Virus record (IMG/VR): IMGVR_UViG_3300032291_002524
Span: 32,001-96,000 of that record
Source: a virus
Direction: 5' to 3' (one strand)
Length of the DNA stretch: 64,000 nt
Shown here: positions 31,773 through 58,841 of the stretch, piece by piece
How the letters are laid out: each line of letters starts with the position of its first letter
How positions within the stretch are numbered: position 1 is the first letter of the stretch
Translations under genes and position numbers: made by a program
The notes under the pieces: model-generated
What the model was told of the DNA's origin: nothing
Seen by the model: the letters and a program-made list of their open reading frames with translations, nothing else
The model's database searches: none

Positions 31773-32465
31773 ATGATGAAAAATTCACCAACAATAACTG
31801 TAATGTTTGCATACCTACTAACGATATTTTCTTTAGTTATGGTATCATCTTACGTTTCACCAACCAATACGACACGGTTAGATAAAATTGACACAATTAA
31901 AGTTATTGATACAATAAAACAAATCGATGTTAAAAACAAAGTATCACTTTTTATTGGTGATTCACATACAACAAATTTTAAAAATGGTTGGCAGAAGATT
32001 TTATGTGATAAAACAGGAATGGTGTGTATAAATTCGGCCATGGGTGGTAAAACAACATATTATATGTTGGACGTTGCTGTCCTTAAATTGAATAAAAATA
32101 TTGATTATTGTTTTATTTATGGTGGAGCAAATGACATGTATTCGAATTCGATATCACCTCAGGACGCTTTTGATAATATTAAATCCATATCAAGATTATG
32201 TAATTCACATGGTATTAAGTGTTATATTTTAACAGGTTTTGACGCAACAAAATGCACAAAAACATCAAATATAAATTATCCAAAAAGATATTCAAAGTTT
32301 CAGGAATTATTATTAACCGAAAAAATTAATGGTGCCAAAGTTATTGATACAAGAATTATTGAACGTAGTGATTGTTGGGATAATCTATGTCATATGAATC
32401 CAAAAGGTCATAAGAAAATTGCCGATAAAATTATTAAAGATTTAAACTTGAAAATCACACAATAA
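31773..32465 (+). CDS. SGNH/GDSL hydrolase, membrane-anchored
   Basis: FIGDSHT, GGAND, DNLCHMNPKGH. Confidence 0.85.
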   Translation: MMKNSPTITVMFAYLLTIFSLVMVSSYVSPTNTTRLDKIDTIKVIDTIKQIDVKNKVSLFIGDSHTTNFKNGWQKILCDKTGMVCINSAMGGKTTYYMLDVAVLKLNKNIDYCFIYGGANDMYSNSISPQDAFDNIKSISRLCNSHGIKCYILTGFDATKCTKTSNINYPKRYSKFQELLLTEKINGAKVIDTRIIERSDCWDNLCHMNPKGHKKIADKIIKDLNLKITQ

Positions 32466-40537: not shown

Positions 40538-41116
40538 ATGAAAAAAGAATATAATCAATGGTATTGGAAATTATATAGATGGTTTAAGTGGGACGCAAAA
40601 CATCTCCATAGAGATGTAATTATAGGGGTTAAAAACCTTTGGAAATGGTTTCCTATTATTTGGAAAGACCGTGATTGGGATGATTTTTATATTTTTGAAG
40701 CTCTGAAACATAAGATTAAAAATACTGCCGATTATACAGAAAAAAAACAAAGGTTTGTTGGTTGGGAAAAGGAAGTACGTTATATGAGAATATCCGTAAA
40801 GTTAATAGATAAGATTCAAGATGAATTTTATTCGGCAGAATACTGTAACTATTTTGATATGGATGTTTCTTTCACCCCATCTAAAAATCACAAGGATTCA
40901 TTTGAAGTCGATACTACCATAAATAATGATAATGTTGACAAGTACATTTCAATGTACCCCCACGCTTATCGTAGGTTAATGAATGATAAGAATTTAATAA
41001 ACTTTCAAAAAAGTTCTCGTTCAGTTGCTATGGGTATGGGTATTATACGTCATCGTAAAGCGAAAAAACTTCTTTTTAAGATATTAGAAGAAAGAATAGA
41101 AAATTGGTGGGATTAA
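40538..41116 (+). CDS. hypothetical phage protein
   Basis: WFPIIWKDRDWD...WWD pattern. Confidence 0.7.
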   Translation: MKKEYNQWYWKLYRWFKWDAKHLHRDVIIGVKNLWKWFPIIWKDRDWDDFYIFEALKHKIKNTADYTEKKQRFVGWEKEVRYMRISVKLIDKIQDEFYSAEYCNYFDMDVSFTPSKNHKDSFEVDTTINNDNVDKYISMYPHAYRRLMNDKNLINFQKSSRSVAMGMGIIRHRKAKKLLFKILEERIENWWD

Positions 41117-41136
41117 ATAATTATAATAAAAAGAAA

Positions 41137-41565
41137 ATGAAAATGAAAAAATTATACTTGGACGATGTTAGAATACCTCGTCATTCATATCCGGCAATGT
41201 CAAGAAGAATTGGTTCAGATTCTGCCATATATCAAAATGATGATTGGAATATTGTTAGGACATATGATGAATTTGTAAATTGGATTAGTGAAAATGGGTT
41301 ACCTGATATTGTGTCATTCGACCACGACTTGGCGGATGAACACATTCAATATTATTTTGATAATGGTGGTAACGCAAACCCACCTGACCCCCAAAAAACA
41401 ACTTTTGAGGAAAAAACGGGGTATGATTGTGCTAAATGGTTGGTAGATTATTGTGTTAAAACGCAACAAAAATTACCTGAATATTTGGTTCATTCTGCAA
41501 ATCCTGTTGGTGGATATAATATCTTGACGTATCTAAACAACGCAAAAAAACACACGAACATCTAA
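41137..41565 (+). CDS. cyclic-phosphate-processing receiver-domain protein
   Basis: KLYLDDVRIP, VSFDHDL, TGYDCAKWL, HSANPVG motifs. Confidence 0.8.
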   Translation: MKMKKLYLDDVRIPRHSYPAMSRRIGSDSAIYQNDDWNIVRTYDEFVNWISENGLPDIVSFDHDLADEHIQYYFDNGGNANPPDPQKTTFEEKTGYDCAKWLVDYCVKTQQKLPEYLVHSANPVGGYNILTYLNNAKKHTNI

Positions 41566-41840: not shown

Positions 41841-41871
41841 TTTGACACTTAAAGAAACTTTTGTATCTTTG
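41841..41871 (+). promoter_or_regulatory. Bacteroidota-type promoter upstream of leader 1
   Basis: TTTG (41841) ... TATCTTTG (41864-41871). Confidence 0.7.
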
Positions 41872-41902
41872 TATCATATTTAGAAAGAAAGGAAATAATA
41901 AA

Positions 41903-41998
41903 ATGACACTCGTGAAAAAACATATTGTGAAATCGTTTATTCAGTTATGTAATAACTGGTATATTCGCTTGTCAATAAGTTCGGGTGTTGTTGTATAA
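41903..41998 (+). CDS. putative attenuator leader peptide 1 (MTLVKKHIVKSFIQLCNNWYIRLSISSGVVV)
   Basis: 31-codon ORF whose 3' part AGTTCGGGT is complementary to the 5' arm of the following terminator. Confidence 0.7.
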   Translation: MTLVKKHIVKSFIQLCNNWYIRLSISSGVVV

Positions 41999-42020
41999 CA
42001 ACTTTTAGCCTTAAATAAGG

Positions 42021-42052
42021 AAACCCGAACTCACAAGGTTCGGGTTTTTTTT
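42021..42052 (+). terminator. conditional terminator of attenuator 1
   Basis: AAACCCGAAC-TCACAAG-GTTCGGGTTTTTTTT. Confidence 0.85.
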
Positions 42053-42064
42053 GTTCTTTGACAT
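42053..42064 (+). promoter_or_regulatory. boxA-like element
   Basis: GTTCTTTGACAT just before tRNA array 1. Confidence 0.65.
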
Positions 42065-42080
42065 GTTGGTAACCAAAAAT

Positions 42081-42153
42081 GGGGTAGTGGCAGATGAGGT
42101 CATTGCGACGGACTGAAAATCCGTAGGAACAGGCTCGATACCTGTCTACCCCA
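42081..42153 (+). tRNA. tRNA-Phe(GAA)
   Basis: cloverleaf; anticodon arm ACGGA-CTGAAAA-TCCGT. Confidence 0.85.
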
Positions 42154-42159
42154 CAATAT

Positions 42160-42237
42160 TGGGATATAGCTCAGTTGGTTTAGAGCATCTGTCTGATACA
42201 CAGAAGGTCATCGGTTCAAGTCCGGTTATCCCAACCA
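42160..42237 (+). tRNA. tRNA-Ile(GAT)
   Basis: TCTGT-CTGATAC-ACAGA; encoded CCA. Confidence 0.9.
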
Positions 42238-42242
42238 TATAT

Positions 42243-42318
42243 TGTCCTGTGGTGTAATTGGCAACACATCTCACTTTGACTGAGAAGAGTCCAGGTTCGA
42301 ACCCTGGCGGGATAACCA
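42243..42318 (+). tRNA. tRNA-Gln(TTG)
   Basis: TCTCA-CTTTGAC-TGAGA; CCA. Confidence 0.9.
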
Positions 42319-42341: not shown

Positions 42342-42902
42342 ATGAAAATAAACAGAAAGGACCTAAATTGGTTTCTCCAAAACATCCGTAGGGGAAATGA
42401 GGGTCAGGAACTAACGGATGAACAGTTGGTTGACAAACTGGCTTCCTATATGGAAACCAACCCATCCTGTATTGATATGGAAGGTGTTAGTAATCCTGGT
42501 AGGTTTAGTTATTCAACTGTTGGTTATGGTGTTTTTTCACTTATGGGTGAAAAATACCGAATGGGTAGAATTGAAATCTTTGATAGTGAAGATGAATCAG
42601 GATATGCGGTTAGTGAAGGTATTTACACAATGCCATTCGTTGCGGCAAGTCAATTTGAAGATTTTATCGAGTCTTTGGAAACTGACCTTCCAATTAATAT
42701 TGAAATTGGGTCTCATAAGTGGTGTGAAGATGAATGTGCAAAATCTCTTGGTTTTGAAAATGAGGAAGAGATGAGAAACCCTGAAAAAGTGAAAGAATAT
42801 CGTAGAAAGAAAAACGATGAATTTGCACAAGAAGAGGGTTATAAAGATTGGGACGATTTGTTGGCAAACAGTAAATTTGCACCATTAAAAAAAGAAATTT
42901 AA
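42342..42902 (+). CDS. hypothetical protein
   Basis: start MKINRK immediately after TATATTTG; the longer track ORF overlaps tRNA-Gln. Confidence 0.7.
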   Translation: MKINRKDLNWFLQNIRRGNEGQELTDEQLVDKLASYMETNPSCIDMEGVSNPGRFSYSTVGYGVFSLMGEKYRMGRIEIFDSEDESGYAVSEGIYTMPFVAASQFEDFIESLETDLPINIEIGSHKWCEDECAKSLGFENEEEMRNPEKVKEYRRKKNDEFAQEEGYKDWDDLLANSKFAPLKKEI

Positions 42903-42963: not shown

Positions 42964-43038
42964 GACTTCGTAGCTCAATTGGTTTAGAGCACCTCACTTT
43001 TAATGAGGGGGTTTCGGGTTCGAGTCCCGACGGGGTCA
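42964..43038 (+). tRNA. tRNA-Lys(TTT)
   Basis: CCTCA-CTTTTAA-TGAGG. Confidence 0.9.
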
Positions 43039-43220
43039 CAAAACACAATGTTGGGTTCCCTAGTGGTAACGGTATGAACTTAAGTAAGTAAGCCACAAGA
43101 ATCTAGTAAGAAGCGGAAGATGGGTTCCCCGCGACTAAAGTGTATTACCACCGAGACGTGGCCGACGGGTCCGCTGACGAGCTGAGGAGGTGGTTTAGAA
43201 ATATCCCTAAATACGTACCA

Positions 43221-43293
43221 CTTTCCTTAGCTCAGTTGGTAGAGCACTTGGCTTACATCCAAGGTGTCGTTGGTTCGAATCCAGCAGGAAAGA
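43221..43293 (+). tRNA. tRNA-Val(TAC)
   Basis: CTTGG-CTTACAT-CCAAG. Confidence 0.88.
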
Positions 43294-43301
43294 CAAAAAA
43301 T

Positions 43302-43382
43302 GAGTCAGTTGAGCAATTGGTCCGCTCGCTTGTCTGTAAAACAAGTCCTTCGGGGGTGTAGGTTCGAATCCTACCTGGCTCA
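43302..43382 (+). tRNA. tRNA-Tyr(GTA)
   Basis: CTTGT-CTGTAAA-ACAAG with variable arm. Confidence 0.85.
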
Positions 43383-43443
43383 CAAACTTATATTTCTCCA
43401 AAACTAGTAAAAAAAGTGAGTTTTGGAGGATTATAAAGTAAAT

Positions 43444-43531
43444 GGTGGGGTTGCAGAGTGGTTGAATGCATCGGTCTGCAAAACCGAAAAACTGAAAACG
43501 TTTCACGTGGGTTCAAATCCCACCTCCACCT
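43444..43531 (+). tRNA. tRNA-Cys(GCA) with long variable arm
   Basis: TCGGT-CTGCAAA-ACCGA; U73. Confidence 0.8.
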
Positions 43532-43582
43532 CAAATTTATAGTTCAAATATTGATTTTTACTCTTATTGAGTATTTATTTAT

Positions 43583-44326
43583 ATGAAATGGACTGATGAT
43601 AAAATTGAAAATTTAACACGTTTCGTTGAATTGGGTTTTAAACCACAAGAAATTGCAAAAATGTTAAAAACTACTTACAAATCAATTACAAGTAAAATGT
43701 TTTTATTAGGATTAAAAGTTGTTTACACAGAAAAAAAAACATGTAAAAATTGTGATATTCAATTTGACACACATATCACCAACGGTAAAATATTTTGTTC
43801 GTCAAGTTGTTCGGCGATTTACAATAATAAAAAACGTACACTAAGTGATGAAACGAAAAGTAAAATATCCAATACATTAAAAAATAAACCAAAAAAAGAC
43901 AAACTAATAAAAAACAAAATATGTAAAGTATGTAAAGTATGTAAAGTTCGTGAAATTAATGAAAAACATAAAAGGATTTGTAATAACTGTAAATTAGATT
44001 ATTATGAGTATTACAGACCTTCGTGTGTTTTTAATTTTAACCCTTACGATTTTCCTGAAGAGTTTAACTTAAATTTAGTAAAAAATAATGGGTGGTACTC
44101 ACCATCCAACAAAAAAAATAATTTATATGGTGTGAGTAAAGACCATAAATTATCAATAATGGATGGGTACCGAAATAAAATAAACACAAACATCATATCA
44201 CATCCGGCAAATTGTGAATTAATATTATTTTCGGATAATTCAGTAAAAAAAGATAAATCATCAATAACTCTAAATGAATTACTAAAAAAAATTGAGGAGT
44301 GGAATGTAAAATATGGTAAAAGTTAA
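43583..44326 (+). CDS. freestanding HNH-like homing endonuclease
   Basis: Cys clusters, GVSKDH...SHPANC...NS.K; paralogue of 58008-58784. Confidence 0.7.
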   Translation: MKWTDDKIENLTRFVELGFKPQEIAKMLKTTYKSITSKMFLLGLKVVYTEKKTCKNCDIQFDTHITNGKIFCSSSCSAIYNNKKRTLSDETKSKISNTLKNKPKKDKLIKNKICKVCKVCKVREINEKHKRICNNCKLDYYEYYRPSCVFNFNPYDFPEEFNLNLVKNNGWYSPSNKKNNLYGVSKDHKLSIMDGYRNKINTNIISHPANCELILFSDNSVKKDKSSITLNELLKKIEEWNVKYGKS

Positions 44327-44367
44327 TTATTTTTGTTTTAATTTTCACATAAAAACACAAAATACAT

Positions 44368-44443
44368 GGTGGTTATAGTTCAGAGGAAGAACACTTGGTT
44401 GTGGTCCAAGATGTCGTGGGTTCGAGTCCCATTAATCACCCCA
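44368..44443 (+). tRNA. tRNA-His(GTG)
   Basis: G-1/C73; CTTGG-TTGTGGT-CCAAG; CCA. Confidence 0.9.
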
Positions 44444-44449
44444 AAATAC

Positions 44450-44536
44450 GGAAGATTAGCCTAATTGGTAAGGCAGCTGACTTGAAATCAGCCGTTACGT
44501 GAAAGCGTATTGTGGGTTCGAGTCCTACATCTTCCG
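44450..44536 (+). tRNA. tRNA-Ser(TGA)
   Basis: GCTGA-CTTGAAA-TCAGC, long variable arm, G73. Confidence 0.9.
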
Positions 44537-44583
44537 CAATATGAAAAAGGAAAATGACTTCTATTGACTAAACTCAATAGAAT

Positions 44584-44805
44584 ATGTCAACAAACAGAAA
44601 ACGAACTAAATTAAAATTCGCGGAATGTGGTAGAGATTATCACATACTTTCCCTAAACGAATGGTACCCTCTTTATTGGGATGAAGGGTACAACTTTTAT
44701 CCTTATTGGAGAAGAGGTTTTAAAAATCCCAACAAAACAATTCCAATCTTCAAAGTACGTGAGTACAGAACTTGGAAACACAACAGAAAAACACAGTGGA
44801 AGTAA
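44584..44805 (+). CDS. small basic hypothetical protein
   Basis: 73 aa ending RTWKHNRKTQWK. Confidence 0.6.
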   Translation: MSTNRKRTKLKFAECGRDYHILSLNEWYPLYWDEGYNFYPYWRRGFKNPNKTIPIFKVREYRTWKHNRKTQWK

Positions 44806-44816
44806 TTCCACTATTT

Positions 44817-44891
44817 GGTTCCTTAGTTTAATTGGATAAAACATCTCGATACGGACGAGAAGATGTGGGGGTTCGAGTCCCTCAGGAATCA
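44817..44891 (+). tRNA. tRNA-Arg(ACG)
   Basis: TCTCG-ATACGGA-CGAGA. Confidence 0.85.
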
Positions 44892-44897
44892 CAACAC

Positions 44898-44969
44898 ACG
44901 GATGTAGCTCAGGGGCAGAGCACTTGTCTCCAAAACAAGGTGTCGGGATATCGTAATTCTCCATCCGTG
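44898..44969 (+). tRNA. tRNA-Trp(CCA), atypical T-loop
   Basis: CTTGT-CTCCAAA-ACAAG; G73; T-loop ATCGTAA. Confidence 0.8.
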
Positions 44970-44975
44970 CTAAAT

Positions 44976-45049
44976 GCCGAGGTAGCTCAATTGGTTAGAG
45001 CGTCTGTTTCATACGCAGAAGGTCAGCGGTTCGACTCCGCTCCTCGGTA
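44976..45049 (+). tRNA. tRNA-Met(CAT), elongator type
   Basis: TCTGT-TTCATAC-GCAGA. Confidence 0.8.
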
Positions 45050-45302
45050 CAAAAAATATAATTTGATAATTCGAAATTTTATAATTAATTTTTTTATTGT
45101 TGTTTTTTAAAAGATATTGGTTGGTGGCATAGATGCGTAGATTGATAAGCGTGGAGAGACGTGACGCGAGGGTACACACTAAGGATAGGTTGACAATCTT
45201 AATTGTATTGTTGTAAATCCCGACTCTCTAATGGTGTGTGAAGCTTAGTACTTCAGTGTACGGGCAAGATTCCTGATAAAGTCAATCACTACCAACCTAA
45301 AT

Positions 45303-45383
45303 GCCGAAGTGGTGGAACGGTAGACACGAATGCCTTAGAAGCATTTGCTATATGGTGTGTGGGTTCGAATCCCACCTTCGGTA
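45303..45383 (+). tRNA. tRNA-Leu(TAG)
   Basis: AATGC-CTTAGAA-GCATT; Leu-type D-arm. Confidence 0.9.
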
Positions 45384-45394
45384 CAAATATGAAT

Positions 45395-45478
45395 TGGCAT
45401 GTCGCTCAGAGGCCGAGAGCATCAGGCTGTTAACCTGACTGGGAAACCACACCGTAGGTTCGAATCCTACCATGTCAG
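45395..45478 (+). tRNA. tRNA-Asn(GTT) with long variable arm
   Basis: TCAGG-CTGTTAA-CCTGA; G73; extra TGG-GAAA-CCA hairpin. Confidence 0.8.
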
Positions 45479-45521
45479 CAATAATTTTTCATAAGTCAAA
45501 TATTTGTTTTATATTTGTAAT

Positions 45522-45998
45522 ATGGAAAAGGGGTTTATATCAGCATCGAAAGCAATTAAAGGATATACCGAATCTATGATTGCCAAGTCTGAAAACAACG
45601 ATTGTGTTGTTAGAGCAATCGCATCGGCATCTGAAATGGATTATAATTCCGCACATCAATTCGTTAAAGAAACATTCAATAGAGAAAATGGTAGGCCAAC
45701 ATTTGGATTCGGTACTGGTATGAATTTGTTATCAAAAAATGGTAAACAAATTAACGGTAAAAACGTTCAAATTATTTCTGAAGAATATAACACCATGTCG
45801 TATTATGTGGTAGTCAAAGGTGTTAAAAAATTAAGAGCAACAACAACATCAACATTTATCAAAAAATATCCGGTTGGTACTTATGTGGTACTTGTTAGAG
45901 GTCACGCATTTACTATCAAAGATGGAATTGTTATTGGTAACCCCGATGACAGTAAAAAAATGAAAAAACATATCGTAAGGGTTTGGAAAATTGGATAA
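45522..45998 (+). CDS. hypothetical protein with DCVVRA...HAF motifs (possible Cys-His catalytic pair)
   Basis: NDCVVRAIA and RGHAFTIKDG; start immediately after TATATTTG. Confidence 0.65.
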   Translation: MEKGFISASKAIKGYTESMIAKSENNDCVVRAIASASEMDYNSAHQFVKETFNRENGRPTFGFGTGMNLLSKNGKQINGKNVQIISEEYNTMSYYVVVKGVKKLRATTTSTFIKKYPVGTYVVLVRGHAFTIKDGIVIGNPDDSKKMKKHIVRVWKIG

Positions 45999-46025
45999 TA
46001 TGTTTTAACTTTGTATAACAATAAT

Positions 46026-46103
46026 GGTGTCGGTAGCTCAGTAGGTAGAGCAACGGCTTGAAACACCGTGTGCCGAGTGGTTCGATTCCCTCCCACACCA
46101 CCA
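46026..46103 (+). tRNA. atypical tRNA, probably Phe(GAA)
   Basis: bulged acceptor stem, ACGG-CTTGAAACA-CCGT anticodon arm, CCA end. Confidence 0.55.
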
Positions 46104-46314: not shown

Positions 46315-46427
46315 AGTCAGGTGGCGGAATGGTAGACGCTTAAGGTCATAAGGTATAGTACATAGCTCCGTATTAAAGAGTCAGTTGCCGAATCTATACC
46401 ATACAGGTTCGAATCCTGTCTTGACTG
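46315..46427 (+). ncRNA. tRNA-Leu-like scaffold A (63-nt insert)
   Basis: AGTCAGGTGGCGGAATGGTAGACGC...ACAGGTTCGAATCCTGTCTTGACT. Confidence 0.75.
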
Positions 46428-46563: not shown

Positions 46564-46641
46564 AGTCAGGTGGCGGAATGGATAGACGCAACCACATAAG
46601 TGGTCAAACCGGTACTACAGGTTCGAATCCTGTCCTGACTA
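46564..46641 (+). ncRNA. tRNA-Leu-like scaffold B (27-nt insert)
   Basis: same arms; insert hairpin ACCAC-ATAA-GTGGT. Confidence 0.75.
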
Positions 46642-46784
46642 CGCTCCTTTCTGGCGTTTTTAACAATAGGACGTGGTACAGATGCACCAGATGGATGTAC
46701 CAACCCAGCATCAGGGACTTGGCAAGTTTTCGGTAGCCAATCAGATGTAACCGATGACAGCTCGGAAAGTACGAGCAATATACC

Positions 46785-46856: not shown

Positions 46857-46968
46857 AGTCAGGTGGCGGAATGGTAGACGCAAAGATGTTGTGAGTTGGT
46901 AGGTAATAACTACTTGGATGGTGTCCACATTAGAACTCTCTATACAGGTTCAAGTCCTGTCCTGACTA
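46857..46968 (+). ncRNA. tRNA-Leu-like scaffold C (62-nt insert)
   Basis: same conserved 5' and 3' arms. Confidence 0.75.
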
Positions 46969-52994: not shown

Positions 52995-53063
52995 ATGAGA
53001 ACCATTTTCATATTCGGAACACCAGCAACAGAGGGTGATACTTCCAAAGTGGAGATGGGATAA
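52995..53063 (+). CDS. putative attenuator leader peptide 2 (MRTIFIFGTPATEGDTSKVEMG)
   Basis: 22-codon ORF whose 3' end TGGAGATGGG is complementary to the 5' arm of the next terminator. Confidence 0.7.
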   Translation: MRTIFIFGTPATEGDTSKVEMG

Positions 53064-53085
53064 TATTGTCTTTTAGACCTTAAAG

Positions 53086-53117
53086 AAACCCATCTCCAAA
53101 AAAGATGGGTTTTTTTT
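53086..53117 (+). terminator. conditional terminator of attenuator 2
   Basis: AAACCCATCT-CCAAAAA-AGATGGGTTTTTTTT. Confidence 0.85.
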
Positions 53118-53125
53118 GTTACCTA

Positions 53126-53202
53126 TTTGGCAAATCAAAAATAATGTTGTATCTTTGTATTGTTGTTGATGATAACAACATAACAAAAGAGTTCTTTGAC
53201 AT
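53126..53202 (+). promoter_or_regulatory. Bacteroidota-type promoter plus boxA
   Basis: TTTG (53126) N20 TATCTTTG (53150-53157); GTTCTTTGACAT (53191-53202). Confidence 0.65.
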
Positions 53203-53285: not shown

Positions 53286-54191
53286 ATGTATAAATGTGGA
53301 TATTGCGAAAAAGATTTTAAGAATAAGGGAGGTTATGTAAGACATAATAAAACCTGTAAAATTGTTGATAATATTAGAGATGATGTTTACCGATTATATG
53401 TTGATGATTTGTGGAGTATAAAAGACATTGAAAAAAAATATAAGATTGGCCATAATACGGTCAATCAGATTTTAGGAGATTCAAAAAGAACACAATCTGA
53501 AGGTAATAAAACAGCTCGTAAGAAATATCCTGAAAATTTTAAACATACTGAAAAATCTAAACAAATTTTAAGGGAGAAACGATTAAAATTTATGAAAGAT
53601 AATCCCGACAAAACTGCTTGGAGATTAAAGAATATATCATACCCTGAAAAATTGTTTTATAACAAAGTTATTGAATTAGGGTGGGATAAGAAGTATTCAA
53701 TTAAACGAGAATACTCAGTATTTCCATATTTTATTGATTTTGCGTTTTTAAATGAAAAAGTTGCCGTTGAAATTGACGGTTCTCAACACCTTCTTCCTGA
53801 ACGAAAATTAAAAGACAGTGAAAAAGACGATTTATTAATTTCAAATGGATGGAATGTTATTAGGATATCTGAATATAAAATAAAAACCGAAATTGAAAAT
53901 GTCTTTGTTGAAATATTACAAGTTTTAAATAAAAATGTTAAACCTAAATTACATAGAGTTGGAATCGTATTACACCCAAAGAAAAACCAAAAGAAAAAAC
54001 GAGAAAAAAATGGATTGACAAAAGAACAACTAAATTCTATTAAATCTCAAAGAAAAATTAACAGACCTGATTATAAAACATTAATTAACGAAGTAAAAGA
54101 ATTTGGTTTTAATAAAACAGGTAAAAAATACGGGGTTAGTGATAACGCGATTAGAAAATGGGTTAAATTTTATGAAAAATATGAAAATTAA
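53286..54191 (+). CDS. DUF559/Vsr-like homing endonuclease with NUMOD3 and HTH motifs
   Basis: YFIDFAF...VAVEIDGSQH...KDDLL..NGWNVIRI; HTEKSKQIL. Confidence 0.8.
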   Translation: MYKCGYCEKDFKNKGGYVRHNKTCKIVDNIRDDVYRLYVDDLWSIKDIEKKYKIGHNTVNQILGDSKRTQSEGNKTARKKYPENFKHTEKSKQILREKRLKFMKDNPDKTAWRLKNISYPEKLFYNKVIELGWDKKYSIKREYSVFPYFIDFAFLNEKVAVEIDGSQHLLPERKLKDSEKDDLLISNGWNVIRISEYKIKTEIENVFVEILQVLNKNVKPKLHRVGIVLHPKKNQKKKREKNGLTKEQLNSIKSQRKINRPDYKTLINEVKEFGFNKTGKKYGVSDNAIRKWVKFYEKYEN

Positions 54192-54346: not shown

Positions 54347-54439
54347 AGTCAGGTGGCGGAATGGTAGACGCTTTTGGATTCTCTGTCCGATACCTTTGTT
54401 AAGGCAAAAAGCTTACAGGTTCGAATCCTGTCCTGACTA
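54347..54439 (+). ncRNA. tRNA-Leu-like scaffold D (43-nt insert)
   Basis: same conserved arms. Confidence 0.75.
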
Positions 54440-54513
54440 CAAAAATATTGGGTCCCGTACGGAATCGGGTGATGAGTGAAGGGTTGCCGACTCTGTTTCA
54501 CCGCTCAAAGCAT

Positions 54514-56145: not shown

Positions 56146-56420
56146 AAAGAACCTTTCCTTACATAGGACGGATTAGCACCGTTGAAAGACAATCTTTGGC
56201 TTCGTGGGAGTATCTACCCAATGAAGTATAAATGGCCCAAAGTGTGATGTGATGGACCCTGCTCTGTAGTGCACTTACACCAGGTGAACAGTAAACTATG
56301 TTCAGTCAAATCCACAACTACGGTGAGCGTAGAAGGAAAGTTTCTTTTTTAAGTGGACCTTTCAGTTGAAAGGGACCAATCCGAAGTCGTCCTACAAGAT
56401 TAGAAACGTCTTCGGCATTT

Positions 56421-57553: not shown

Positions 57554-57639
57554 AGTCAGGTGGCGGAATGGTAACGCAATGTTTCTAGACGAAGTTCAGC
57601 CGGGGGAGGCTGTTGCAGGTTCGAATCCTGTCCTGACTA
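57554..57639 (+). ncRNA. tRNA-Leu-like scaffold G (37-nt insert)
   Basis: same conserved arms. Confidence 0.72.
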
Positions 57640-57764
57640 CATTGATGGGTGGTTCTTCTCCCTGAACAGGTGGCTTGGTAATCAAGGAACTGAATGTTTT
57701 TAGAACATTTGCAGAAATACTGGTAGAACAGTGAAGATGACGGCTCGGAAAGTACGAGCAAAAT

Positions 57765-58007: not shown

Positions 58008-58784
58008 ATGAAAAAATGTAAAAACATTGAATGTGAAAATAGTGTTTTGAAACATAGAGTATATTGTTCATTAACTTGTCGTAATATCTATGTTAATAGA
58101 TATATGAGGGATTATTCTAAAGCAGGTCAAACTATTAGTAATAAATCAATTGATTTATATATGAAGAATATAAAACATTGTCAAAACCCTAAATGTGGTA
58201 AAGAAATACCATATGAAAAAAGGAGAAATAATTATTGTGACAGTAGTTGTAGTACTTCACACATTAATATTAAAAGGCCACATACATGGGGTGATAAGAT
58301 AAAAAAGGGGGTGATTAATTATCACATAAAAAATGGTCATATTAAAACTAAAATATGTGGTTTTTGTGGTAATGAATTTTCAAATAGAAATAAATATTGT
58401 TCAATAGATTGTTATAAACACAAACGAAGAGAACATATTAATGAATATGAAAAATATAAATTAGACTGTAAATTCAAATTTAACGTGTATGACTATCCGC
58501 AAGAATTTGATTTGTCTTTAATTGATAAGTATGGTTGGTACAAAGCAATAAATAATGGCAATAATTTACGAGGTATTAGTAGGGACCATATGTTATCAAT
58601 CAATGAAGGGTACATGTTAGGTATTGACCCATATTTAATTTCTCATCCTGCAAATTGTAAATTAATGATTCATACTGACAATATTAGTAAGAATAAAAAA
58701 TCGTCAATAACAAAAGAAGAGTTAATTAAAAAAATAGATAGTTGGAACATTAAATATCCATTAATAAATGGGGTTGTCGTATAA
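58008..58784 (+). CDS. freestanding HNH-like homing endonuclease
   Basis: Cys-rich repeats, GISRDH...SHPANC; paralogue of 43583-44326. Confidence 0.7.
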   Translation: MKKCKNIECENSVLKHRVYCSLTCRNIYVNRYMRDYSKAGQTISNKSIDLYMKNIKHCQNPKCGKEIPYEKRRNNYCDSSCSTSHINIKRPHTWGDKIKKGVINYHIKNGHIKTKICGFCGNEFSNRNKYCSIDCYKHKRREHINEYEKYKLDCKFKFNVYDYPQEFDLSLIDKYGWYKAINNGNNLRGISRDHMLSINEGYMLGIDPYLISHPANCKLMIHTDNISKNKKSSITKEELIKKIDSWNIKYPLINGVVV

Positions 58785-58841
58785 AAGATATTACAATGGT
58801 TTTGCAAACCATAAAACACGGAGCGTTACCGTGCGACTCCA
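58770..58841 (+). tRNA. tRNA-Ala(TGC), atypical T-loop
   Basis: G3.U70, A73, ATGGT-TTTGCAA-ACCAT; T-loop AGCGTTA. Confidence 0.8.

Follow-up and report, generated by a model that had tools for sequence, protein, structure and literature searches.

In the trp, his, leu, thr, pheA, ilvGMEDA and pheST attenuators of E. coli and Salmonella, a short leader ORF with regulatory codons is combined with an intrinsic terminator; an antiterminator overlaps the 3' end of the ORF, an anti-antiterminator lies upstream, and the position of the ribosome selects which helix is formed. The phage locus described here is built from the same parts. However, while the attenuators of amino acid operons regulate biosynthetic enzymes or a synthetase, the phage leader is placed to regulate tRNA genes, and while they use tandem codons for one to three amino acids, the phage leader carries approximately one codon per tRNA, up to 14 of them. 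Also unlike those attenuators, its codon set co-evolves with the content of the array and a boxA-like site follows its terminator. A T-box likewise couples the status of a tRNA to read-through of an intrinsic terminator through an alternative antiterminator. In that case, a single uncharged tRNA is bound directly, by means of the specifier codon and the T-box sequence, and no translation is needed. The phage leader, in contrast, has a conserved ORF and many codons, and no T-box model matches it.

Phage tRNA genes are usually regarded as constitutively expressed cargo whose role is to tune codon usage or to make good the destruction of tRNAs in infection, and to our knowledge their regulation is essentially undescribed. 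A full-text literature search returned no account of an attenuator preceding phage tRNA genes, consistent with an earlier reading of this DNA made from the letters alone (the sequence-only reading), which knew of no described attenuator over phage tRNA arrays. For a cellular array, the trn operon of Anabaena sp. PCC 7120, it has been found that a long set of tRNA genes is induced under translational stress (PMC8421152). As we propose for the phage array, these accessory tRNAs are silent by default and come on when translation is impaired (PMC8421152), but the Anabaena array belongs to a plasmid of a cell and the array behind leader 1 to a phage. Control of trn has been attributed to a promoter-bound repressor, TrcR (PMC10272220), and the words attenuator, leader and terminator are absent from PMC8421152. 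We show here the anatomy of the phage element, its conservation, the covariation of its helices and the co-variation of its codons with the array, and we propose that the known mechanism of ribosome-mediated attenuation is applied to tRNA genes, an arrangement for which we found no publication.

A leader ORF and alternative helices ahead of a phage tRNA array

The window analysed is a stretch of 64,000 nucleotides (positions 32,001 to 96,000) of the IMG/VR virus record IMGVR_UViG_3300032291_002524. The record spans 106 kb at a CheckV completeness estimate of 34%, and must therefore come from a large phage. Its features around two tRNA arrays are collected in Table 1. There are 19 copies of the two-part motif TTTG-N18-21-TAnnTTTG in the window, for an expectation of 4.0, and the promoter of leader 1 is, judged by its sequence, of the Bacteroidota sigma-A type, with transcription expected to start near 41876-41880. 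Its -7 box also precedes the leader in relatives. The leader is structured (folding z-score -3.65), and its stop codon starts 10 nt past region 2, the antiterminator strand. The small hairpin around the stop codon keeps its pairing in relatives through two compensatory changes (GTGTTA/TAACAC). Region 1 sits at the very start of the ORF, a position from which re-pairing behind a late-stalled ribosome may not be possible. The sequence-only reading had named a promoter, a 31-codon ORF, an antiterminator, a terminator and a boxA-like box, and all were found at the same positions; the pairing that it had claimed between codons 26-28 and the 5' arm of the terminator proved to be exact over its 9 bp.

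Table 1. Features of the two putative attenuators and of their surroundings, in window coordinates.
Feature	Position	Strand	Details
Bacteroidota-type promoter of leader 1	41841-41871	+	-33 TTTG at 41841-41844, 19 nt, -7 TATCTTTG at 41864-41871
Leader-1 ORF	41903-41998	+	ATG 41903, TAA 41996-41998, 31 codons, MTLVKKHIVKSFIQLCNNWYIRLSISSGVVV
Leader-1 sensor codons	within 41903-41998	+	about codons 2-22
Region 1, predicted 5' strand of anti-antiterminator	41902-41912	+	pairs with 41982-41992 in minimum-free-energy folds
Region 2, predicted antiterminator strand	41978-41986	+	AGTTCGGGT, codons 26-28; exact complement (9 bp) of ACCCGAACT at 42023-42031
Small hairpin around the stop codon	41987-42002	+	GTTGTT-GTAT-AACAAC, from folds
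Intrinsic terminator (regions 3 and 4)	42021-42052	+	11-bp stem (arms 42021-42031 and 42037-42047), 5-nt loop, eight T's (42045-52), folding energy -18 kcal/mol
boxA-like box and following sequence	42053-42079	+	GTTCTTTGACAT at 42053-42064, then TTGGTAACCAAAAA
Array 1, first tRNAs	42081-42318	+	tRNA-Phe(GAA), starting at 42081, tRNA-Ile(GAT), tRNA-Gln(TTG)
Array 1, remaining tRNAs	42964-46103	+	Lys, Val, Tyr, Cys, His, Ser(TGA), Arg(ACG), Trp(CCA), Met, Leu(TAG), Asn, second Phe; Trp(CCA), at 44898-44969, by the Rfam tRNA model alone (47 bits), without ARAGORN
ORFs inserted in array 1	42342-42902, 43583-44326, 44584-44805, 45504-45998
Bare -7 boxes inside the array 1 span	42914, 44328
Full promoter motif inside the array 1 span	45982-46013
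Second attenuator	52995-53117	+	same design, unrelated stem; 22-codon ORF MRTIFIFGTPATEGDTSKVEMG
Second attenuator, region 2	53051-53059	+	GGAGATGGG
Second attenuator, terminator stem	53086-53112	+	AAACCCATCT..AGATGGGTTT and T-run
Consensus promoter past second terminator	53126-53157	+
Hairpin before second boxA-like box	53165-53182		similar to the hairpin at 41987-42002
Second boxA-like box	53191-53202
tRNA-Ala(TGC) of array 2	58770-58841		Rfam-only call

Except for Trp, the tRNAs of array 1 were called by ARAGORN. With this set, codons 3-23 of leader 1 specify exactly the 13 non-Met amino acids of the array and the peptide contains no Ala, Asp, Glu or Pro, both as the sequence-only reading had observed. 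Among 15,089 windows of 21 residues drawn from the phage's own ORFs of at least 120 aa, none covered all 13 amino acids and only two were confined to them. The match is not complete at the level of codons: TTA, TTG and ACA have no strictly matching tRNA in array 1, the two Leu codons not being read by tRNA-Leu(TAG) under strict wobble, and the tRNA-Met of the array has no internal Met codon in the leader. In correction of the sequence-only reading, four ORFs interrupt array 1. Apart from an upstream cREC_REC protein and, in array 2, an ORF resembling a DUF559 endonuclease, a Pfam search of the ORFs inside the arrays returned nothing tied to tRNA biology. No promoter motif was found between the terminator (ending at 42052) and tRNA-Phe, and the tRNAs for Phe, Ile and Gln that head the array have no other visible promoter. 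Farther on, a full promoter motif and two bare -7 boxes lie inside the span of the array, and the inserted ORFs and these possible internal promoters may uncouple the distal tRNAs from the leader. In two relatives (L001 and L002), the array is compact and lacks the inserted ORFs.

Past the terminator lies a box that resembles bacterial boxA sequences. It occurs only twice in the 106-kb record, once past each attenuator, and a boxA-like box is kept between terminator and first tRNA in relatives. That it is a NusB/NusE site is inferred from resemblance only, without a link to a host rrn leader. The host being unidentified, four Bacteroidota genomes were searched for the boxA motif; matches were few, did not exceed those of a control pattern in three of the four genomes, and in none of the four lay near rRNA or tRNA genes. 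As in rrn operons and phage lambda, the box heads a long, untranslated and highly structured transcription unit and stands next to small hairpins. In contrast to the boxA of those systems, it sits downstream of a regulated terminator, and thus cannot act on that terminator.

The second attenuator of the window stands before array 2, and the same element precedes tRNA-Glu in two relatives (L006 and L020). Its codons again correspond to the tRNAs behind it: ACA to Thr(TGT), GAT to Asp(GTC), CCA to Pro(TGG), GGA and GGT to Gly(TCC) and Gly(GCC), and GCA to Ala(TGC), with AGA and ATA corresponding to Arg(TCT) and Ile(TAT), two tRNAs that lie farther away. A consensus promoter follows the second terminator, as one also does between terminator and array in family C of the relatives, so attenuation cannot be the sole route of expression in these cases.

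Relatives of the leader in viral contigs

Relatives were retrieved from IMG/VR with exact and degenerate DNA patterns. A structural pattern (GTTCGG, 25-55 nt, CCGAAC, 4-10 nt, GTTYGGGKTTTT) matched 75 viral contigs, in all of which (75/75) a tRNA on the same strand starts 26-160 nt past the terminator. An ATG ORF of 22-39 codons is present in all but one, the exception being cut at the end of the locus, and its stop codon lies 0-14 nt past GTTCGG, the core of region 2. In contrast, the same pattern had 33 matches in 596 Gb of bacterial genomes, of which a single one (1/33) was followed by a tRNA; some of the 33 carry short Cys-rich frames that resemble ordinary amino acid attenuators.

The ORF behaves as a coding sequence in these relatives. 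In family A, to which leader 1 belongs, the seven distinct sequences all keep the ORF in frame at 31 codons, with 9, 8 and 18 variable sites at the first, second and third codon positions. Residues shift their place while the set is retained (His at codon 7 or 11, Phe at codon 12 or 15), and this window is alone in the family in having a tRNA-Ser in its array, and alone in having Ser among its sensor codons (TCG, codon 11). Over all families, the leader frame is open in 42 of the 42 unique leader regions, as against 3 and 0 for the other two frames, and variable sites number 28, 24 and 49 by codon position, third positions being about twice as variable as first or second.

When this region of the window and three further leader families were compared by BLAST with 50,697 phage records, no cultured phage with a leader emerged; the only matches were to tRNAs and to an uncultured phage of 735 kb. 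In this published genome (LR756501.1), an unannotated leader, SKHSKHFSSSSKWF, precedes tRNAs for Trp, His, His, Phe, Lys and Ser. By these comparisons, the putative attenuator is widespread in large phages with Bacteroidota-type promoters.

Covariation and folding of the RNA helices

A terminator scan that ignored stem sequence was used to look for upstream copies of the 3' arm. Such copies, of at least 7 nt, are present for 47 of the 66 unique terminators with a tRNA within 200 nt, but for only 10 of 148 other terminators, and those ten are mostly T-runs together with the second attenuator of this window. The copies represent at least seven unrelated stems (CCCGAAC, CCCATCTC, CCTCGGGA, CCCTGAACAC, CCCACCC, CCCAATCAGA and GAATTCCT; one of them is that of the second attenuator of this window), across which region 2 covaries with the 5' arm of the terminator, as the 2:3 helix predicts. 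Within the GTTCGG set, the position flanking the fixed 6-mer, which the search pattern leaves free, is paired in 33 of the 40 unique sequences, where 20.8 would be expected, as A-T, T-A or G-C. In one leader (L016), GTTCGGG is read in another frame and a compensatory C faces the G of the 5' arm; the constraint there is therefore on the RNA and not on the peptide. The duplex between the first seven codons and region 2 (1:2) is also stronger than expected, with a mean of -8.6 kcal/mol over 21 families versus -4.2 for shuffles (p = 3e-5) and -5.4 for cross-family pairings (p = 8.5e-4). All three predicted helices of a classical attenuator (1:2, 2:3 and 3:4) are supported, through covariation over at least seven unrelated stems.

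The sequence-only reading had proposed folding the leader with the ribosome footprint masked. In a snapshot of the leader-1 transcript that ends before region 4, this gave the expected switch: the 2:3 helix forms with a probability of about 0.9-1.0 while the ribosome occupies any of codons 1-22, and is blocked once codon 24 has been reached. With full equilibrium folding, the terminator of leader 1 prevails wherever the ribosome stands, and thus the switch must be kinetic, as in classical attenuators, whereas leader 2 switches even at equilibrium. With region 4 absent, the 2:3 helix of leader 1 still beats the 1:2 helix at equilibrium.

Leader codons and the tRNAs of the downstream array

More than 12 classes of leader peptide, unrelated in appearance, can be distinguished, and each holds the amino acids of its own downstream array (examples in Table 2). 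Taken over 21 family representatives, the sensor codons cover 0.99-1.00 of the array amino acids, compared with 0.76 for shuffled pairings of leaders and arrays (0/20,000), and with just 0.38-0.64 for the upstream arrays of the same loci. Precision of the core codons is 0.87 versus 0.65 for shuffled pairings (0/5,000). This correspondence reaches the level of isoacceptors. For six-fold amino acids of which the array serves only one box, the leader codons fall in that box 34 times versus 16, a share of 0.68 as against 0.48 in shuffled pairings (17/5,000). Arrays with Arg(ACG) have CGY codons in the leader and those with Arg(TCT) have AGA, while a leader whose array has both Arg tRNAs (L056) contains both types; Ser(TGA) together with Ser(GCT) goes with TCN together with AGY, Ile(TAT) with ATA and Lys(CTT) with AAG. 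The order of codons correlates only weakly with that of the tRNAs (mean rho 0.14, p = 0.04) and is not relied on here.

Table 2. Leader peptides (in part) and the tRNAs that follow them in relatives.
Leader	Peptide	Downstream tRNAs	Array amino acids in leader	Retrieval
L081	MKRINKHNIQVVKSQFSNCWYPRM	Q M V F H Y S R P I K C W N	14/14
L067	..GFNGCDWQQE..	G W C Q E D
L053	MKNINNISTSTRPLNNGNGYGVQPL	L R P N L Y M V T G Q S
L019	MVHISSFKQQEICSWYRYVE	V E F H S I K C W Y Q R M I S
L030	MKNLNTLTATLAPTNGGDRD	P N G G D T A L R L	8/8	without GTTCGG pattern
L048			13/13	without GTTCGG pattern
L059b			10/10	without GTTCGG pattern

L019 illustrates how closely a leader follows its own array: Glu is gained and Leu is absent, consistent with the tRNAs downstream, and the residues for its upstream array (P N G G D T A L R L) are mostly missing from the peptide. 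The regulatory codons are, as far as sequence can tell, cognate to the tRNAs that the array supplies. The sequence-only reading had suggested looking in related phages for conserved ORF composition and for compensatory antiterminator changes. Both are borne out, since the ORF is in frame in all relatives and its composition follows the downstream tRNAs across families, and since region 2 and the 5' arm change together across the unrelated stems.

Discussion

We consider it quite probable that a ribosome-mediated leader-peptide transcription attenuator in the style of trp and his controls this phage tRNA operon. In this model, host RNA polymerase would start at the Bacteroidota-type promoter and transcribe the leader ORF. 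If all sensor codons are decoded promptly, the ribosome would arrive at the last codons or the stop codon and mask region 2, upon which regions 3 and 4 would form the terminator and transcription would end at about 42052, before tRNA-Phe. A stall at any sensor codon, where the aminoacyl-tRNA is scarce, would instead leave region 2 free to take the emerging 5' arm; no terminator would then form, and polymerase would read through past the boxA-like site into the tRNAs. In an untranslated leader, region 1 could sequester region 2, which would make termination the default. Given about one leader codon per array tRNA, the leader would work as an OR gate over the decoding capacity of the array, and a loop of negative feedback would result, in which a scarce tRNA leads to more transcription of the array and decoding is restored. 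As most sensor codons of leader 1 are present only once or twice, its response should be shallower than that of the tandem codons in hisL and trpL.

The claim of the sequence-only reading that this is a multi-amino-acid attenuator is strongly supported by the comparative data. Translation of the ORF and stall-dependent read-through remain inferences, and the same is true of the kinetic coupling and of the physiological trigger; evidence from transcripts, Term-seq or ribosome profiling is lacking. We know of no work that establishes the coupling of transcription and translation in Bacteroidota. That the trigger is cleavage of host tRNAs by anticodon nucleases is speculation, to which the adjoining cREC_REC gene lends some plausibility.

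Other explanations account for parts of these observations. The ORF could encode a functional micropeptide with its own promoter and terminator, the tRNAs being expressed by constitutive leakage or from other promoters. In fact, the peptide is conserved within families, a C-x-x-W-Y-x-R motif is common to several classes, and a consensus promoter lies past the terminator in family C and at leader 2. We nevertheless find a micropeptide highly unlikely, given that unrelated peptide classes each mirror their own tRNA set down to the isoacceptor boxes, that GTTCGG is kept in a different frame in L016, that changes in the stem are matched in the upstream copy of the terminator arm, and that leader 1 has no promoter motif between 42052 and tRNA-Phe. 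The strong structure of the leader, together with the retention of AACAUA at +15 to +21 and of GTTCGG whatever the frame, might rather point to an element acting as RNA only, such as a processing signal, a small RNA or a T-box-like tRNA-binding riboswitch, in which the open frame is incidental. Very little credence can be given to this, however, when every one of the 42 unique leaders has an open ATG frame of 22 codons or more, against 3 and 0 for the other frames, third codon positions vary about twice as much as the others, the stop codon always falls 0-14 nt past the region-2 core, and a search of 41880-42060 against Rfam at E up to 1 gave no match to any family, the T-box included. Moreover, a match of codons to anticodons is inexplicable without decoding.

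If the frame is translated, the ribosome might still be arrested by the nascent peptide, as in TnaC or SecM, in response to a small molecule or factor and not to tRNA supply. In families A, B and D, a Trp stands 12 residues before the C-terminus, the spacing of E. coli TnaC, and an I-C-x-x-W-Y/F stretch recurs in several classes. However, the spacing is not general (14 residues in family C), many leader classes have no Trp and share no common motif, and a stall at the stop codon would mask region 2 and so favour termination; we therefore rejected a TnaC-like arrest. Arrest peptides of this kind would in addition leave unexplained why the composition tracks the array, and they are hardly credible here. 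What remains is the possibility that the mechanics are those of an attenuator, but that the signal is amino acid starvation or general translation stress, with the codon match a by-product of phage codon usage. A stalled ribosome is indeed blind to whether a tRNA is missing or uncharged, as is established for the trp and his attenuators, and AT-rich codon usage is reflected in arrays and leaders alike. Yet the two arrays of one phage have complementary leaders, a partition that genome-wide codon usage cannot explain, and where a single tRNA has been gained or lost, the leader shows it too, as seen for Ser in this window, for Glu, Leu and Asn in family C and for Pro in L081. A by-product of codon usage thus seems to us quite unlikely, and a leader that senses the decoding capacity of its own array remains the preferred reading.

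It is conceivable, although we regard it as doubtful, that this holds for a large Bacteroidota-type phage lineage which includes the 735-kb genome. Each array would be self-tuned by a one-codon-per-tRNA 'barcode' leader that co-evolves with the gain and loss of tRNAs, gauges the speed of decoding one codon at a time and opens when any tRNA becomes limiting, be it through phage- or defence-driven loss of host tRNAs (e.g. by anticodon nucleases), and adjacent RNA-repair genes would form a second counter-defence arm.

Our findings suggest that the phage senses translation itself and makes tRNAs on demand. They would carry leader-peptide attenuation over from the supply of amino acids to that of tRNAs, and would raise the number of regulatory amino acids from between one and three to up to 14. 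The sequence of a leader would predict the tRNA content of its transcription unit, and the element would represent a natural multi-input sensor of decoding speed that can be tested and reused. Thus, why phages carry tRNAs, and when these are needed, becomes directly testable with reporter constructs.

Genes and RNA elements around the two leaders

The features located around the proposed ribosome-mediated attenuator (the leader, a short ORF with a switchable terminator ahead of tRNA array 1) and a second attenuator of the same design ahead of array 2 are collected in the table. Two ORFs 5' of the leader lies a gene for a protein with a cREC_REC (cyclic-phosphate processing receiver) domain, a domain associated with RNA-repair systems. 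In the array 2 region, the DUF559/REase-like ORF is probably a mobile endonuclease; in two relatives (L006 and L020), tRNA-Glu(TTC) directly follows the boxA-like box on its 3' side. The freshwater-1 match, which scores slightly below the gathering score of 72 bits, sits within array 2 and has one of that array's two tRNA-Gly genes on each side.

Features near the leaders and tRNA arrays (window positions)
Feature	Position	Strand	Remarks
cREC_REC domain protein gene	41104-41565	+	domain match E = 1.9e-22
AACAUA-like motif	41918-41924		
tRNA-Trp(CCA)	44898-44969		Rfam 47 bits; missed by ARAGORN
tRNA-like element	46315-46427		
tRNA-like element	46564-46642		
tRNA-like element	46857-46968		
DUF559/REase-like ORF	53286-54191	+	between second boxA-like leader and array 2 start
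tRNA-like element	54347-54440		
Rfam freshwater-1 RNA motif (RF02979)	56248-56310	+	70.1 bits
tRNA-like element	57554-57640		
tRNA-Ala(TGC)	58770-58841		Rfam 42 bits; missed by ARAGORN

Both tRNAs that were recovered only with Rfam have unusual T-arms, and a comparably odd T-arm occurs in L026, a locus from the comparative searches. Among the tRNA-like elements, those starting at 54347 and 57554, the only two whose ends were read, share near-identical termini (5' AGTCAGGTGGCGGAATGGTA, 3' CAGGTTCGAATCCTGTCCTGACTAC) around unrelated middles. ARAGORN assigned two of the tRNA-like elements as Glu(CTC) and Ser(AGA), assignments that we regard as doubtful.

The same design in other genomes

In LR756501.1, a published, unannotated 735-kb 'uncultured phage' genome, a leader (MLQTSKHSKHFSSSSKWFTTFGV...) and terminator at ~207.3-207.6 kb precede tRNAs for Trp, His, His, Phe, Lys and Ser. 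The terminator/antiterminator pattern is also present in bacteria, as at L098, L109 and L114 (Anaerolineae MAGs, from genome_contigs), where it is preceded by short ORFs with many Cys and Met codons (e.g. ATGATGTGTTGTTGTATG) and no tRNA lies 3' of it; these elements look like ordinary Cys/Met amino-acid attenuators.

A conserved motif near the start of the leader ORF

In most leader classes the ORF carries an AACAUA-like motif at a constant distance from the start codon (nt +15 to +21 relative to the ATG). Given that the motif is read in differing frames, as K-H-I in some and as N-I in others, the constraint acts on the RNA. The motif may form the inner portion of the 1:2 helix, in which the start of the leader ORF pairs with the antiterminator strand, or may serve as a pause signal.
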